Positions 3,939 through 18,556 of a stretch of DNA of 28,454 nucleotides are shown here, piece by piece. The notes beneath the pieces were generated by a model. That model was not told the DNA's origin and ran no database searches. It saw only the letters and a list, made by a program, of their open reading frames with translations. Position 1 is the first letter of the stretch. Every line of letters begins with the position of its first letter. This DNA is from an uncultured virus (IMG/VR IMGVR_UViG_2775507110_000002) (Duplodnaviria; Heunggongvirae; Uroviricota; Caudoviricetes), in IMG/VR virus record IMGVR_UViG_2775507110_000002; one strand, 5' to 3'. The position numbers and the translations under genes were made by a program.

Positions 3939-3962
3939 CACCTATAATTTCCCTTGTACGTG
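3939..3962. promoter_or_regulatory. Candidate tyrosine-recombinase core site
   Basis: CACCTATAA-TTTCCC-TTGTACGTG: 9-bp imperfect inverted arms (7/9) around a 6-bp spacer, in an AT-rich patch upstream of the recombinase operon. Confidence 0.45.
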
Positions 3963-3991
3963 CCTGCGTACCTGAGAGGGGATCTCCGCGC

Positions 3992-4642
3992 ATGACGCTC
4001 ACTCGGCAAATCATCCTTGCCCGCCTTGTCCTCGCTGTGTTCGCAGCGATGATGGCTTACGCGCTGATCGCTGGAGTGGCGAGCGGCTACTGGGGTGGCG
4101 TGGCCATCCTCGTTCCGCTGATCGCCATAGGCGCATGGGCGCTCCGCCTTGAGTGGGGGATGCTTGACCAGCAGCGCCCCATCGCTGAACTGGGCACCCA
4201 ACTCCGCGAAGCGGCACGGGTGGTGCCCACCGGTGTGACTCGGATCTTCATCAGCAGGACCTCGGACGAGGTGATCCTCTGCCACCCCTCCCGGAAGCAC
4301 AGCAGCCCTGACCAGTTCTCCCGGGTGCAGATCGAAGACGCGGAGACGATGAACTTCGCGGAGCCGGGCGCTCTGATCCACCTGCCCGCCACCACCTACC
4401 GGGTAAGCCGGACCCTCCCGATGGTCTGGCGGCACTCCTGGGTTGGGGAAGCCGTCAAGGGGGCGGAGGGGGAGTACCACTCCAGCACGCCCACGCCGAC
4501 AAGCTACCGCGCGGCGCTCAAGGCTCTGATGCTGAACCACCGGACCGGCGTGATGGTCCCGGACGGTCAGGAGCTGCGCGAGGTGATCGACCTGATCCAG
4601 CGCGCTGACCGCGCCCTGGACGTGCCGGGCAGCCCGGCGTGA
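3992..4642 (+). CDS. Membrane protein (two N-terminal TM helices plus soluble domain)
   Basis: GAGAGGGG RBS; two hydrophobic segments in the first ~50 aa; stop overlaps the recombinase start (GTGA). Confidence 0.7.
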   Translation: MTLTRQIILARLVLAVFAAMMAYALIAGVASGYWGGVAILVPLIAIGAWALRLEWGMLDQQRPIAELGTQLREAARVVPTGVTRIFISRTSDEVILCHPSRKHSSPDQFSRVQIEDAETMNFAEPGALIHLPATTYRVSRTLPMVWRHSWVGEAVKGAEGEYHSSTPTPTSYRAALKALMLNHRTGVMVPDGQELREVIDLIQRADRALDVPGSPA

Positions 4643-12794: not shown

Positions 12795-13441
12795 ACCAGC
12801 CCACCACCGCAGGCCCCACGGCCGCGCCCGACGCCCCGTCACCCGCCCATGTCGACCGGGCCCTTGCCGCCCGCTGCCAGTCCTCCGGGGACCACATCGC
12901 CGGGCTCCTCGCATACGGTCACCTCGCCGCCGCCGGAACCGTCACCAAGCTCCCCACCGCCCTGTTCCCGGACTGGCCGGCCGACATGGTCCAGGCCGTG
13001 TGGGACGCCGCCCTCCCGGTGGGGTTCCAGGCGGGGAAACTCTCGGTGCGGCCGACGTGGACACGGGATGCCCTGGACCGGTTGCGGGCCGCCCTGGACG
13101 ACGCCGGGTACACGGCGATGGGTGGCCTGGTCGCCCGGTCCGCCACCGTGCACCCGCCCCGGCACCCCGCCGACGGCGAACAACCGGCCCCCGGTACGCG
13201 AGCACAGACAAGGAGTTCGCCACCGCCCTGGAGAAGGCCAAGGCAGCAGGGGCGAAGGTCCGCCGGGAGGGGGTGCCGCACGGCGAGTACCGGTACAACA
13301 TCCTCGGCTGCCGATGCCCGGACTGCGGCCTCGCCGCCACCGTCGCCCGCGCCGGACGCCGAGCCGAAGCCGCCACGAACACCACCACCGACGACGAGTC
13401 CCCGGCCAACACTGCCGGGGACGTCCACCCGATCCGGCTGA
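12791..13441 (+). CDS. Hypothetical protein; 3' part probably out of frame after ~13193
   Basis: ATGA-coupled; protein-like for ~134 aa, after which the codon bias moves to another frame. Confidence 0.55.
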   Translation: MNQPTTAGPTAAPDAPSPAHVDRALAARCQSSGDHIAGLLAYGHLAAAGTVTKLPTALFPDWPADMVQAVWDAALPVGFQAGKLSVRPTWTRDALDRLRAALDDAGYTAMGGLVARSATVHPPRHPADGEQPAPGTRAQTRSSPPPWRRPRQQGRRSAGRGCRTASTGTTSSAADARTAASPPPSPAPDAEPKPPRTPPPTTSPRPTLPGTSTRSG

Positions 13442-13445
13442 ATCT
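13193..13445 (+). pseudogene. Start-less fragment of an HG..Y..GCRCxxC zinc-finger gene
   Basis: Frame of ORF 12742 reads RYASTDKEFATALEKAKAAG...PHGEYRYNILGCRCPDC with GC3-rich codons. Confidence 0.5.
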
Positions 13446-13496
13446 GAAGAACGCCCTATCCGCACCTACACGTCACAACGGATACAGCGTGCACGC

Positions 13497-13631
13497 CTAC
13501 ACCCTCGGCCAGTCGTCCACCGGCGGCCAGGGGTCCTCGGGTCCCAACTCCATCTCACGCTCGGCAAGGGCGTCGCTCATCATCTCGTCGGCAAGGTACG
13601 CCGAGTCGTCGGCGTCATCCCAGTGAGTCAT
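13497..13631 (-). CDS. 44-aa strongly acidic peptide (not in ORF track)
   Basis: MTHWDDADDSAYLADEMMSDALAEREMELGPEDPWPPVDDWPRV; mostly G/C third positions; no clear RBS. Confidence 0.5.
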   Translation of the reverse strand: MTHWDDADDSAYLADEMMSDALAEREMELGPEDPWPPVDDWPRV

Positions 13632-13724
13632 ACCCAACTAACGACCAGCCGGTTCAACGCGTCACCCGACTGGTTCTTCTACTTCCTTTTTGCTGGCCAG
13701 GGCTTCCTGAAGGGGTACCAGGCC

Positions 13725-13768
13725 AGCTCAGCAAGATCCCGTTATTAATGTCGCAAAAGTATAGGACA
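13725..13768 (-). repeat. 44-bp site B, inverted copy of site A
   Basis: Minus strand TGTCCTATACTTTTGCGACATTAATAACGGGATCTTGCTGAGCT. Confidence 0.9.
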
Positions 13769-13806
13769 ACGGCACCGGGAAGCCGTGGGAGCGTGATGAG
13801 CTGCGG

Positions 13807-13960
13807 CCTCTGACGCCAGACGACCATTGACGTCCCCTACGCGGGGTTCCTGCTTCATCAGAGCCTGCCCATAATCGATCGGGTCTTCCAGCTCCTCCAC
13901 AGGCGTTTCACCTCTCCGCCCGTCCGGCGGCGAGGATGATTCGTGCAGCGTTAACGTCTC
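13807..13960 (-). ncRNA. Putative TnpB omega/reRNA: scaffold ending TCAA at 13827 plus ~16-20-nt guide (5' boundary approximate)
   Basis: After the tnpB stop: AACGCCTGTGGAG...GAAGCAGGAACCCC...GGGGACGTCAA, resembling IS200/IS605 right ends; the guide would be TGGTCGTCTGGCGTCAGAGG. Confidence 0.6.
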
Positions 13961-15026
13961 GATCGTGAACAGCTCCGCACGCCTCGCACGTCCACTGCCG
14001 AACACTGAGAGGCTTCGGGCCGTCAATGACCAGGCACATGTGACACGTCTGCGAGGAGGGAAGCCAACGGTCAACGCGATCGAATGTGCGTCCGTAGCGC
14101 ACAGCCTTGTACTCCAGCATCGCAGTGAACTGCGACCATCCGGCGTCATGAACTGATTTTGCAAGCCGTGTGCGCGCAAGGCCCTTCACTGCAAGGTCTT
14201 CCACGTACACCGCTTGGTTCTCGCGGATGATCGTGGTCGACAGCTTGTGGTGAAAGTCCCTACGCGCGTCAGCCACGTGAGCGTGAAGTCGCGCAACACG
14301 ATTCGTCGCCTTGCGGCGGTTCGCTGACCCTTGCCGCTTTCTTGAAACTGCCTGCTGGGCCTTCCGGAGCTTGCGCTCAGCTCGCCTCATGAACTTCGGG
14401 GAGGAGATCTTTCGCCCATCAGAGAGGACCGCAAAGTGTGTAAGCCCCAGGTCGATACCCACGTCTTGAGCGGCTTCCGGAAGGACCTCTGCCGGGTCAG
14501 TCTCGACAACGAACGAAGCGAAGTAGCGCCCGCTGGCATCCATGATGACTGTCACTGAAGAGGGGTCAGACGGAAGGCTGCGCGACCATCGGACGGCCAC
14601 GTCGCCGATCTTGGCCACATAGAGTCGACCGTTGGGTCGCAGGACGAAGGCGTTGCGGCATAGGCGGATAGCCTGATGCCGATCTTTCCGCGATCGGAAC
14701 TTCGGCTTACCTACCCTGCCGCCCTTGCGGGCCCCATTCAGAGACCTGAAGAAGTTGCTATATGCCACGTCAAGGTCTCGGAGTGCCTGCTGGAGAACCA
14801 CGTTGGAGGTCTCAGCAAGCCAGGCTCGTTCGGGCGTCTTCTTGGCTTGAGTGATCAGCAGCTTGGCGAGGTCTCCGGACCTGGGGAGCGGATCCCCCTT
14901 CTCCATCGCCTCTCGGCGCACTCGAAGAGCGTCGTTGTACACAGTTCGCGCGCACCCGAACGCGTTGGCCAGCGCCTTGCGCTGATCCTGCGTTGGGTAG
15001 AGCCGAAACTTGTACCGAAGCTGCAT
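13908..15026 (-). CDS. tnpB: IS200/IS605-family RNA-guided endonuclease TnpB
   Basis: RYKFRLYPT...FGCARTVYN, RuvC-I GIDLG, RuvC-II VEDL, Zn finger CHMC/CEAC, RuvC-III DRDVNAA. Confidence 0.95.
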   Translation of the reverse strand: MQLRYKFRLYPTQDQRKALANAFGCARTVYNDALRVRREAMEKGDPLPRSGDLAKLLITQAKKTPERAWLAETSNVVLQQALRDLDVAYSNFFRSLNGARKGGRVGKPKFRSRKDRHQAIRLCRNAFVLRPNGRLYVAKIGDVAVRWSRSLPSDPSSVTVIMDASGRYFASFVVETDPAEVLPEAAQDVGIDLGLTHFAVLSDGRKISSPKFMRRAERKLRKAQQAVSRKRQGSANRRKATNRVARLHAHVADARRDFHHKLSTTIIRENQAVYVEDLAVKGLARTRLAKSVHDAGWSQFTAMLEYKAVRYGRTFDRVDRWLPSSQTCHMCLVIDGPKPLSVRQWTCEACGAVHDRDVNAARIILAAGRAER

Positions 15027-15070
15027 GTACATCAGTGTACATGAACGTCTATGGTAGTACCCTGCGGTAC
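15025..15070. promoter_or_regulatory. Divergent leaderless promoters covered by a phased GTAC/TGTACA operator array
   Basis: GTAC at 15027, 15037, 15057 and 15067; TACACT-N7-ATG (tnpB, minus strand) and TACCCT-N7-ATG (antitoxin, plus strand). Confidence 0.7.
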
Positions 15071-15241
15071 ATGGATGAAGAATCGATCGAGATGTCCTCC
15101 GCTGAAGCCCGTCAGAACTTCGCCGATGTACTGAACGCCGCATCTGCACGCGGGCGCATCACGTACATCACGAGCCGAGGCCGGCGCGTCGCCGCGGTGG
15201 TTCCCCTATCGGTCGCCGAAGAGGCGGAAGCCCTGAAATGA
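15071..15241 (+). CDS. Orphan Phd/YefM-family antitoxin-like DNA-binding protein
   Basis: MSSAEARQNFADVLNAA...ITYITSRGRRVAAVVPL; 56 aa. Confidence 0.85.
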   Translation: MDEESIEMSSAEARQNFADVLNAASARGRITYITSRGRRVAAVVPLSVAEEAEALK

Positions 15242-15506
15242 CAGCAAAGCAACCTACGTCCTGGATTTCCGTTCAACATGTAGGCTGCGCCTAGCGTTAG
15301 ACGAGTGATCAGAACGGCAGCAAGTCGGCTCTGGGGCGCGCAATCGAACTGCAACTCCCTGTCGATGACGCAGAACGGCTCGCGCAGCAAATGCTCCGCA
15401 TGGCCGCCGCCGCACGCAGGCAGGCCAACCGAACTTCCCGTGCCGACCAGGCGCAGGGGCAGACCGAACCCGGCAAGGGGGATCAGGTGACGTGGCGATC
15501 TTCTGA

Positions 15507-15660
15507 GCGGGAGGTCCTGGGCCCCTTGGCGGGGGCACTTCCTCTACCGCTGGCCGCTGATGTTGGCGCATCGTGCGCGGCCACTTCCACGGCTCGGTTT
15601 GGCGACCGAGCTAAGGCCCGACTTCCGGATCCGGTTTGGCGACCGGGGCCAATCAGGTCG
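15507..15660 (+). repeat. Array of four stem-loops with identical TTGGCG loops in the rep leader
   Basis: Loops start at 15526, 15563, 15599 and 15636; stems GCCCC/GGGGC, GATG/CATC, GGCTCGGT/ACCGAGCT and TCCGGT/ACCGGG. Confidence 0.8.
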
Positions 15661-15741
15661 AGCGACTTCAGGTTCCTCACGAACCCACCCCGCGAGCGGG
15701 GCCCTTAGTGCATCCACCTACAAGAAGAGGACGGGTACATA

Positions 15742-17127
15742 GTGCAGTACGACGCACCTGCTTGTCAGCTTGAGCGCGCAAACGATGGCGATTCGCGGCA
15801 AAAGTCCACCCCCCAGGTCGGCACCGAGTGCCCCCCGATCGCCCCGTGGGCGCCCGTCAGTGCCACCGCCATGGAGATCCACACCACCGCCTCCCGGCAC
15901 ACCGCACCCCGCAACTGGCTCCGCAGCGTCGAGTGGCTCATCGCCGCCGGCCTCCACCCCAAGGCCAACCAGACGACTCTCCTCGTCGCCCAGGACCTCG
16001 CCAAGCGCATGGACTACAGCACGGGGCACGTCCGCTACGGACTCGAGGACATGGCCGTACGGCTCGACCTTGACCGGTCCAACGTCGCCCGGCACGTGAA
16101 GTACCTCCGCGAGCTCGGCTCCCTCGCCTGGGCTGCGCGCGGCTCCCGCAGCAACATCAAGCGCATCCTCGGCCGCCCCGGGTACGCCGCCACCGCCACC
16201 GTGTACGCCGCCACGATCCCGGCCGTCTACGACCACGCCATGGGCCACCGGATCATCGGCGAGGGGTACGAGGCGCGGGCCATCGCGGTCCGTCAGGAGA
16301 CCAGCGTCGCCGGGGGTGCGAATGCCCCCGAATCGGCTGTGGATAACTCCTCTTCGGGCCCTGTGGATAACCCCGCTAAACGATCTCTTGCGACCCCTTC
16401 CCTTACCCCAGCCACCTATGAGGATCAGGTTCAGATGGTGGGGGGTGTAACTACTACCGCGACGCGGCAGCAAACCACCTTCAGCTCCCCCTCCCAGACG
16501 GCCAAGACCAACAGCGGCAGCAAGAAGCGGGCCACGATCCTCGGCAACCCGGTCACCGCACCCGGCATGCGCCTCGGAGACCGCCTCGCCCGCGCCATCC
16601 GCCGCGCCGTCCCGTGGACCCGCCGCGCCACCCACGACCAGCTCCGGTGGATCTGCGCCGACATGGGCGAGCAGCAGTGGACCGAGGACCAGGCCGTGCG
16701 GTTCGCCATCGAGACCGGCCACCAGCACGCCGCCGGCTTCGTCTGGAACCCTCAGCACCCCCACCGGGTCCTCGCTGCCGCCCTGCGCACCGTGGACGCC
16801 GACCAGCTCGAGGAGGTTCCCTTCGACCCGACGCACTCCGTCGCGTACGAGGACTCCACCGTCGCCCGTGACTGGGCCTCTCTCGAAGCGATCTTCGCCC
16901 TTGGCCAGCCAGCCTCCGAGGCCGCGCACCCGGACGACATTCCCGCCGACCGGTACACCGACGACGACCGGCTCCGCGCCCGCCTCGACTGGAACGCCTG
17001 GCCCGAGGTCGCCCGCCACTACGCCGACGACCCCGACGACGCCCTCGACCTCTACGGCACCAAGCTCTGCTGCTACGCCGCACGCCGGGACGCCGCAAAC
17101 CGAAACCGACAGGAGGCGTGGGCATGA
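15742..17127 (+). CDS. Putative replication initiator with N-terminal winged HTH (start may be ATG 15871)
   Basis: GLEDMAVRLDLDRSNVARHVKYLRELGSLAW HTH; low-complexity linker carrying DnaA boxes; operon with DciA genes next to parAB. Confidence 0.7.
   Translation: MQYDAPACQLERANDGDSRQKSTPQVGTECPPIAPWAPVSATAMEIHTTASRHTAPRNWLRSVEWLIAAGLHPKANQTTLLVAQDLAKRMDYSTGHVRYGLEDMAVRLDLDRSNVARHVKYLRELGSLAWAARGSRSNIKRILGRPGYAATATVYAATIPAVYDHAMGHRIIGEGYEARAIAVRQETSVAGGANAPESAVDNSSSGPVDNPAKRSLATPSLTPATYEDQVQMVGGVTTTATRQQTTFSSPSQTAKTNSGSKKRATILGNPVTAPGMRLGDRLARAIRRAVPWTRRATHDQLRWICADMGEQQWTEDQAVRFAIETGHQHAAGFVWNPQHPHRVLAAALRTVDADQLEEVPFDPTHSVAYEDSTVARDWASLEAIFALGQPASEAAHPDDIPADRYTDDDRLRARLDWNAWPEVARHYADDPDDALDLYGTKLCCYAARRDAANRNRQEAWA
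16338..16370. promoter_or_regulatory. Two perfect DnaA boxes, candidate intragenic origin
   Basis: TGTGGATAA at 16338-16346 and 16362-16370 (reverse complement TTATCCACA), followed by a locally AT-richer stretch. Confidence 0.75.
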
Positions 17128-17789
17128 CCGAGACCGACAGCATCGTCCAGCAAATCGCGACGATCTGGCGCGACACCTACCAGCAAGGCCAGGTCATTCC
17201 CGTCGCATTCGACTTGGAACGCGGACGCCTGGTTGTGGAGTGTGCTGACCGCCCCTACCTGGTCCAGACCCGGCTCATCGGCGGCTCGCTCGCCAAGAAG
17301 ATCAACGCAACGCTGGGTGCCGAAATCATCCGCAGCGTTGTCCCCCTCCTGCGAGAGATCCGCATCCTCGTCACCGGCTCACGCTCATGGGAAGACGTCC
17401 AAGGCCTCGACGACGCCCTCCGCGACACCTGGCACGACGTCACCCAGGTCTTCAGCCCCGAGCACCGCGTCGTCATCGTCCATGGCGACTGCTACAAGGG
17501 CGCCGACTTCTTCGCCAGGCACTGGGCCGTCGCGAACGGCATCCGCCAGGAGAAGTACCCCGCGGACTGGACCGGCCCGTGCGCACCAGAGTGCCCGGAC
17601 GACCACCGCCCAATCCGGGCCAACGGCAAGTCCTACTGCCCCACGGCCGGCCCGCGCCGCAACGAAGCGATGGTGCAGCTGGGGGCCGACATCCTCGTCG
17701 CCTTCCAGCGAGGCAACAGCAGCGGCACAGCCGACTGCATTCGCCGGGCAACAGCCGCCGGAATCCCTGTCAGGAGGTTCACCGCATGA
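17124..17789 (+). CDS. DciA-like domain fused to YspA/DUF2493-type SLOG domain
   Basis: N-terminus GRLVVECADRPYLVQTRLIGGSLAKKINATLGAEIIRSV; C-terminus ILVTGSRSW, IVHGD..GAD, PADW, AGPRRNEAMV, SSGTADC. Confidence 0.75.
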   Translation: MTETDSIVQQIATIWRDTYQQGQVIPVAFDLERGRLVVECADRPYLVQTRLIGGSLAKKINATLGAEIIRSVVPLLREIRILVTGSRSWEDVQGLDDALRDTWHDVTQVFSPEHRVVIVHGDCYKGADFFARHWAVANGIRQEKYPADWTGPCAPECPDDHRPIRANGKSYCPTAGPRRNEAMVQLGADILVAFQRGNSSGTADCIRRATAAGIPVRRFTA

Positions 17790-18556
17790 CCGACCAGCCC
17801 GCGTCCGGTGCCGACCTGGCCCGCCTCGCCCTCCAAGCCGCCCGCGCCGCCGCGAAGACCCGACCCACCAACAAGCCCCGGCTCCGCACCGCACGGCCCA
17901 TCCGCGGCGAACGACGCGACCCCGCCGGGCTCGGCAACGTCCTCGGCCAGCTCACCACCGAACTCGGCTGGCAGCACGGCATGAACGGCGGCGACCTCCT
18001 CGAGCAGTGGCCCGACCTCTGCCCCCAGTACGTCGGCCACATCGAACCCGCCCACTACGACCCCCAGACCCGGCGCCTCGACCTCCGGCCCGCCTCACCT
18101 GCCTACGCCACCCAGCTCCGCCTCCTCGGCGGCAAGCTGTGCAAGCAGATCAACGACAAGGTCGGCCAGGACCTCGTGCGCAGCATCCGCGTCCTGCCCG
18201 TCGGCCCCATCACGGCGAAGCCCGCACCGGTGGCGGCCGCGACTGCACGGCCCGCCGTGGAACGCCCGGTCAACACCCGGGACACCGCGTGCGACGGGTA
18301 CAAGGCCACCCTCGCCGGAATCCGCCGGCTCGAACTCCCGCGGGAAGACCCGAGGGTCGCCACGGCGCGCGCCGAGCAGATCCGTACCGCGGCCCGTGAA
18401 CCCGAGGACCGGTTCGCTCCGGTGGTTGCAGCGGCGGAGGAAGATGCGGCCGGCCCGCAGCTGTCCGACTCCGAACGCGCCCGCCAGGCCGCCATCGCCT
18501 ACAAGCACACCGGCGACACCACGGTGCCCGTGCGGCAGGTCTTCGACGTCGCGTGA
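17786..18556 (+). CDS. dciA: DciA (DUF721) family helicase-loader-like protein
   Basis: GADLARLALQAAR, RRDPAGLG, WPDLC, ASPAYATQLRLL...INDKVG..VRSIRV. Confidence 0.8.
   Translation: MTDQPASGADLARLALQAARAAAKTRPTNKPRLRTARPIRGERRDPAGLGNVLGQLTTELGWQHGMNGGDLLEQWPDLCPQYVGHIEPAHYDPQTRRLDLRPASPAYATQLRLLGGKLCKQINDKVGQDLVRSIRVLPVGPITAKPAPVAAATARPAVERPVNTRDTACDGYKATLAGIRRLELPREDPRVATARAEQIRTAAREPEDRFAPVVAAAEEDAAGPQLSDSERARQAAIAYKHTGDTTVPVRQVFDVA

Follow-up and report, generated by a model that had tools for sequence, protein, structure and literature searches.

The four hairpins with TTGGCG loops in the window (the whole 28,454-nt stretch of viral DNA analysed here) are part of a conserved, non-coding leader of about 260 nt that lies 5′ of a probable rep gene, and the leader family is that of the pZL12-like Streptomyces phage-plasmids. 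The leader is real and conserved, and literature searches that covered sources other than the primary pZL12 paper found neither a description of it nor any antisense replication control in Streptomyces. Judged by its sequence, it looks like a variant of cis-antisense replication control, in which kissing between the loops of a sense and an antisense RNA probably sets Rep translation and hence copy number and incompatibility. The features of the leader and of the gene behind it are collected in Table 1.

Table 1. Features of the leader and the probable rep gene (window coordinates).
Feature	Position	Strand	Remarks
Shine-Dalgarno-like site and two-codon mini-ORF	15477..15495	+	start-Thr-stop in relatives
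Predicted counter-transcript	15505..15732	-	about 145-230 nt; deduced from promoter and strand asymmetry
Hairpin P1	15507..15550	+	loop TTGGCG 15526-15531
Hairpin P2	15552..15582	+	loop 15563-15568
Hairpin P3	15591..15612	.	loop 15599-15604
Hairpin P4	15615..15664	.	loop 15636-15641; complete pairing on minus strand only
Hairpin P5	15671..15685	.	hypervariable loop
Hairpin P6	15688..15701	+	followed by U-rich tract in many relatives, not in the window
Probable Shine-Dalgarno site of rep	15727..15731	+	read from sequence; at predicted 5′ end of counter-transcript
Predicted antisense promoter	15739..15768	-	overlaps rep codons 1-9
Predicted -10, CACTAT	15744-15739	-	18 nt from -35
Predicted -35, CTGACA	15768-15763	-	followed by 18-nt spacer
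Probable replication initiator, 461 aa	15742..17127	+	pZL12.20c homologue, 87% identity
Small hairpin over first rep codons	15742..15757	+	at least 4 pairs in 46/51 leaders, identical arms in 32
Two perfect DnaA boxes	16338..16370	-	inside rep gene; probable origin

The array is real, as the first-pass annotation of this DNA had read it: the four loops fall within 15526-15641, 37, 36 and 37 nt apart, and are closed by Watson-Crick stems of 5, 4, 7 and 5 bp that differ in sequence. In the whole 90,454-bp contig, TTGGCG is closed by a stem of at least 4 bp at only five sites on either strand, four of which make up the array, and the largest cluster of loop words per 150 nt is four in the array versus at most two in 100 first-order Markov genomes. 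Folding energy by itself is unremarkable, both for the whole region (z = +0.80) and for single hairpins (z = −0.2 to −1.6), so the evidence for the array is comparative. Around GTGGCG at 15492, where a fifth and weaker unit had been read, there is no hairpin (−5.2 kcal/mol, z = +1.04); the site lies within the mini-ORF, GTG-ACG-TGG (15487-15495), whose stop codon is mutated here.

For this comparison, leaders were gathered from viral, genome and plasmid loci, yielding 55 distinct sequences after exclusion of L251, L265, L276, L281 and L287, in which the anchor was missing or wrong. Removal of 4 near-duplicates left 51 leaders at <92% identity (mean identity 69%), of which 46 parse into modules; 5 of the 55 were not parsed. 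A pattern scan of genome contigs was too loose (true leaders at 4 of 120 loci), and the unpublished genome G133 supports none of the claims made here. The leader matches 53 plasmid records, all from Streptomyces, and is present in 11 of 401 sampled Streptomyces genomes; it is also found on S. ambofaciens pSAM1, ZL12 is the only match among annotated phages, and the window's own genome (G000) has a single copy. The order of modules is constant: ribosome site, mini-ORF, P1 to P6, rep ribosome site and rep start. The leader sits inside an operon of variable small genes and is conserved while the genes upstream of it are replaced. In the window, a TnpB gene (minus strand) and a Phd/YefM-like gene (plus strand), with no cognate toxin seen, occupy positions 13908-15241 and interrupt a gene that a close relative has ahead of its leader, standing where the relative has the 5′ part of it. 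A comparison with Rfam, as proposed in the first-pass annotation, gave no relevant family for positions 13000-18000 of the window (E ≤ 5) or for six related loci (E ≤ 1).

Some loci depart from this pattern. Six divergent leaders (L262, L265, L274, L276, L283 and L292) keep the layout with other loop words, five of them with a leader ORF whose stop overlaps a start of rep. In L008 (2620-2910), one TGTCA-type word recurs in the loops of five hairpins, P6 among them. Many other Rep homologues have no detectable leader or promoter motif (L266-L273, L275, L277-L280, L286 and others), and several of these are on chromosome-sized contigs.

The ORF downstream of the leader probably encodes the replication initiator. 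Its counterpart pZL12.20c, from the Streptomyces plasmid-phage ZL12, is annotated with the same start, and the pZL12 paper reportedly names a repA. The context fits this role: there are DnaA boxes inside the ORF, DciA and ParA-type genes nearby, and relatives on 133 plasmid records as well as in 58 of the 401 sampled Streptomyces genomes. Searches of the ORF against Pfam, PHROG and NCBIfam returned no match, and neither did Foldseek (E ≤ 0.001) with a poor AlphaFold model (mean pLDDT 46); some relatives are annotated as helix-turn-helix proteins. The two DnaA boxes are the only perfect ones in the 90,454-bp contig, and with the consensus given in the part of PMC3583192 that treats it, at least one box occurs in 29 of 46 homologous ORFs and none in the upstream flanks, which points to a probable origin inside the rep gene.

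Behind rep come SLOG-family and DciA genes (17118-18556) and then a ParA-type gene on the opposite strand; the SLOG-family gene separates rep from dciA, which had been taken to be adjacent. DUF721/DciA, a helicase-loader family, is also encoded 3′ of rep in pCQ4, pSAM1 and another relative. On the linear plasmid SGLP1 (L292), two sub-threshold CRISPR-DR9 matches (3941-3977 and 4301-4337) lie 360 nt apart downstream of rep. A short hairpin-forming stretch, possibly a duplicated small gene, is found near both contig ends (window position ~27828; G000:C1 1-30).

The hairpins differ in how much their pairing reveals. In P1 the basal pairs are nearly invariant and the apical C-G pairs almost all invariant, so its tip, which is absent from leaders of the CGCCAA loop class, is uninformative for covariation. 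The apical stems of P2-P4, on the other hand, are Watson-Crick in 34/40 to 45/45 sequences per position despite two-sided changes (43-45 of 45 for P2), and apical positions of P3 show up to four pair types each. In consensus folds of each loop class, whichever strand is folded, 12-16 pairs have changed on both sides, in counts that ignore relatedness. These compensatory changes support the earlier suggestion that hairpin structure is under selection. P5 is present in nearly all leaders, with both arms replaced in L181, L200 and L260. Two other pairings were tried and rejected. One was a long-range helix joining the linker of P3 and P4 to the region of P6, rejected since the 5′ strand of P4 pairs locally, with covariation; the other was a 4-bp RNAalifold pairing of the mini-ORF with rep codons 8-9, which showed no compensatory change.

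We also asked which strand the mismatches favour. In P3, A.C mismatches on the plus strand (equivalent to G.U on the minus strand) outnumber plus-strand G.U by 20 to 0, and in P4 by 32 to 3, versus 0 to 8 in P1, although many of these counts trace to few inherited positions. P3 pair 4, for example, is T-A in 33 leaders, C.A in 12 and C-G in 1, but never T.G, and basal pair 3 of P4 is C.A in 33, C-G in 10 and T-A in 3 (n = 46), all three of which pair on the minus strand. P4 folds more stably as antisense RNA in 42 of 50 leaders, P1 as sense RNA in 47 of 50. The whole-leader consensus of the TTGGCG class is slightly better as sense RNA (−103.5 vs. −96.7), the sense strand is not favoured after P5 (13/45), and the GC skew of the leader is near zero.

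Loop words fall into two main classes. In class a the loop reads TTGGCG or TTGACG; in class b it reads CGCCAA, TGCCAG, TGTCAG or similar, and CGCCAA is the reverse complement of TTGGCG inside equivalent stems. Orientation is uniform among P1-P4, with mixing in 0 of 46 leaders; two divergent leaders, L274 and L276, by contrast have more than one loop word or orientation. The flip of the loops to their reverse complement may have been a single evolutionary event. Leaders of the TTGGCG class have their YUNR U-turn motif on the sense strand, those of the CGCCAA class have it on the antisense strand, and a few loops of a third type have no YUNR motif. In known systems, as far as described in part of PMC4485353, YUNR is found in the loop of one partner or the other, sense or antisense.

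The regular spacing is tied to loop class: loops are 36-38 nt apart in most class-a leaders and 45-47 and 26-28 nt apart in class b, so the period of about 36 nt is not a rule of the family. Units of 36 nt are also known from TIGR-Tas arrays; this identification was rejected, since spacing varies by class and the window's genome (G000) has no match to the Nop domain PF01798.

Leader and Rep appear to have separate histories. On a quick tree of 46 Rep proteins, built without 5 short or cut ORFs, leader class changes 13 times, compared with means of 14.8-14.9 after shuffling. Rep of the window and Rep of pZL12 are 87% identical and follow loops of opposite class, and Rep proteins only ~30% identical to the window's stand behind leaders that match its own at 86-89% identity. 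Since loop class is uncoupled from the Rep tree and near-identical leaders stand before divergent Reps, the leader is best seen as a cassette that moves between elements without regard to Rep, and its hairpins are accordingly unlikely to be Rep binding sites.

The minus strand of 54 of 55 leaders has a promoter-like motif, NTGACA-18-CANNAT, across the rep start (the remaining leader has CTGGCA). The -10 half of this count is circular because the -10 was partly used in choosing the rep start codon; the -35 was not used. Both boxes are invariant or nearly so, whereas the spacer is variable. As a control, the motif was found at 1 of 53 annotated starts of pZL12, namely that of the rep homologue. 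Among 32 more distant Rep loci it occurred within 800 nt in 7, compared with 0.7 expected, using a pattern that had been relaxed after some of the loci had been seen. A search for in-frame motifs only gave 2 of 33 distant loci, a low yield explained by a search in any frame: the start under the motif opens separate ORFs. At six distant loci such a start opens an ORF of 51-148 aa, and in 5 of the 6, including SGLP1, the stop of this leader ORF overlaps a start in the Rep frame. This overlap is as expected if the promoter-covered start is the controlled point of entry. The window's subfamily has no separate leader ORF, and the corresponding N-terminal segment is in frame with Rep.

A sigma-70 scan called no promoter at the site, and the predicted -10 starts with C, not with T as in the S. 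coelicolor consensus NTGACC / TANNNT (excerpt of PMC4895711). According to part of the supplement to PMC6614810, a start mapped on the opposite strand of S. clavuligerus pSCL4 (TSS-2260) lies 13 nt inside the likely start codon of a distant Rep homologue; this homologue is annotated as a pseudogene, with RNA values of 0-6 vs. 450-1000 for the two genes upstream. The pSCL4 leader is not homologous, so TSS-2260 is a weak analogy only.

At the 5′ end of the leader, the third codon of the mini-ORF is TAG or TAA in 54 of 55 leaders and TGG in the window. The start varies among ATG, GTG and TTG, and the second codon varies too. In most leaders (48/55), the mini-ORF shares the frame of the variable gene upstream and forms its end. 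Divergent leaders retain it with other second codons, which suggests that the position of the stop matters and not the peptide. They likewise have a start-codon hairpin with other arm sequences. In the window, loss of the stop opens a 73-codon frame that runs through all four hairpins to a TAG at 15706-15708, 33 nt before rep. Among the 55 leaders, the change from TAG to TGG is private to the window's element and an identical record (L001); related contigs (run X1) read A at the mutated position.

How might these parts work together? We propose that both strands of the leader are transcribed and that the antisense RNA starts near 15732, so that its 5′ tail, complementary to the Shine-Dalgarno site of rep, would block ribosome binding there. 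U-turn loops would nucleate binding of sense and antisense RNA, loop to loop. Either partner may carry the U-turn, so that all loops could flip together, and mixed orientation would be avoided because the loops of one RNA could otherwise pair with each other. Should Rep act on an origin within its own gene, the dose of antisense RNA would provide negative feedback, and plasmids that share a leader would be incompatible. The mini-ORF would place a ribosome about 11 nt before P1, where it could steer folding or protect the mRNA. Of the two functions suggested in the first-pass annotation, the multi-loop antisense switch is thus the better reading, favoured by the promoter-like motif on the minus strand, the antisense-favouring wobbles and the reverse-complement loops. 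The annotation's further idea, a choice between plasmid and lytic replication, received no support. An exact antisense partner needs no identical loops, so this mechanism explains loop identity only in part.

A more ambitious version is possible, and we put it forward tentatively. The leader may be a portable, Rep-independent RNA cassette that travels across Streptomyces phage-plasmids and linear plasmids, and whose antisense RNA, initiated within the rep start, makes simultaneous kissing contacts with as many as four loops of one word. Loop word and orientation would then form an incompatibility code that recombination swaps between Rep alleles, and the two-codon ORF would gate folding. On this account, the window's element would have become a read-through mutant in nature, once the TnpB insertion had cut the upstream operon.

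It is rather unlikely that the sense strand works alone, be it by attenuation coupled to ribosomes or as a multivalent docking site for a loop-reading protein, the second function that the first-pass annotation had suggested. Such a device would make sense of the conserved mini-ORF 5′ of P1, of the sense-strand preference of P1, of P6 with its U-tract in many relatives and of the hairpin over the start codon, and identical loops would suit a single ligand. However, a loop and its reverse complement would not look the same to an RNA-binding protein, and the uncoupling of loop class from Rep further weakens the protein-binding variant. A sense-only device also leaves the minus-strand motif and the wobble pattern of P3 and P4 unexplained, and no terminator was called in the window.

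An unlikely alternative acts at the level of DNA or primer, with the hairpins as signals of a single-stranded origin in the lower strand, or with the minus-strand transcript as a ColE1-like primer. The G.T wobbles would favour hairpins in lower-strand DNA just as they favour antisense RNA; there are precedents in RepA of Streptomyces pWTY27, which binds a long inverted repeat adjoining rep (part of PMC3583192), and in RNA-based origins reported in mycobacterial prophages (part of PMC7157519). Yet the DnaA boxes suggest that the origin lies within the rep gene, near-identical leaders precede Reps about 30% identical to the window's, and ribosome signals flank the leader on both sides.

A structured RNA like C4 of phage P1 or CI of phage P4, processed from the operon or encoded elsewhere, could instead pair with the loops and control immunity or the choice between lysis and lysogeny. 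Such a regulator would be at home on a phage-plasmid, in a leader within an operon of variable small genes, but it seems very unlikely here, given that the leader is single-copy and has no Rfam match and that a linear plasmid has a leader of this design too. Moreover, no complement of the loops lies downstream in the leader and no trans-encoded partner was found in the contig, which elsewhere has merely scattered 5-7-bp hairpins with CGCCA loops. Finally, it is hardly credible that short duplications produced the array neutrally, as folding energies no better than those of shuffled sequences and the similar bases of the helices might suggest; covariation contradicts this, with compensatory pairs conserved in 51 leaders of 69% mean identity while the upstream genes were replaced.

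If the leader does exert cis-antisense kissing-loop control, this would account for how copy number and compatibility are set in a large family of plasmids and phage-plasmids of antibiotic-producing bacteria. It would allow the design of copy-up or mutually compatible vectors, and would show why several identical kissing loops are kept. The anatomy of the leader lends itself to direct tests: the promoter is predicted to the single base, the orientation of the loops can be reversed, and in nature there are pairs whose loops are opposite although their Rep proteins are nearly the same.

To judge from sequence and predicted structure, the leader resembles the antisense systems of R1, IncI/IncB, pIP501 and repABC, and appears, as tested, to be a member of none. 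R1 has one loop, compared with four matched loops in the window's leader. Like CopA/CopT and tap-repA of R1 (IncFII), the proposed system combines a counter-transcript of the rep leader (here predicted), kissing between loops and control at the level of translation, and the leader ORF of linear-plasmid relatives has a stop that overlaps the rep start, as in tap-repA. In contrast to R1, the leader segment of the window's subfamily shares the reading frame of Rep, the predicted promoter lies across the start codon under control, and there is an extra two-codon mini-ORF; the Rfam family for R1 (IncFII) gave no match in sequence or structure. The RNA I/RNA II pair of ColE1 also has several hairpins with similar loops on sense and antisense RNAs. 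Here, unlike in ColE1, control would act on a leader that precedes a protein gene, one that is conserved, encodes 400-500 aa and has internal DnaA boxes; ColE1 control acts on a primer and needs no initiator protein (as stated in part of PMC7157519).

With the Inc RNA/repY-repZ system of IncIα ColIb-P9 and with RNAI of IncB, the leader shares the loop word UUGGCG, to go by a reference title, and in IncI/IncB an antisense stem-loop sets incompatibility (excerpt of PMC10724649). The likeness does not extend to the activating pseudoknot, which was rejected because a complement of the loop near the rep ribosome site is nearly absent (1 of 29 class-a and 0 of 17 class-b leaders), or to a coupled leader peptide across the hairpins, for which leader lengths spread over all three frames (18/22/11, n = 51) and there is no conserved start. 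The first-pass annotation had assumed one UUGGCG loop per leader as the norm, which was too strong, since many loop-loop regulators need several loops (part of PMC3753616).

Like RNAIII of pIP501 and like pT181, the leader would represent Gram-positive antisense control upstream of rep, and pIP501 needs two loop pairs (part of PMC4981023). It differs from both in that there is no clear conserved intrinsic terminator (P6 and its U-tract are variable) and in that the predicted 5′ tail reaches the Shine-Dalgarno site. The repABC replicons of alphaproteobacteria differ in having RepC, to which no homology was found, in the position of the ParA-type gene, here downstream and on the other strand, and in the multi-loop layout. 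Even so, repABC control by ctRNA and repC shares the overall plan, with an antisense RNA upstream of the initiator gene, an origin inside that gene and, in some replicons, minigenes (part of PMC2783167).
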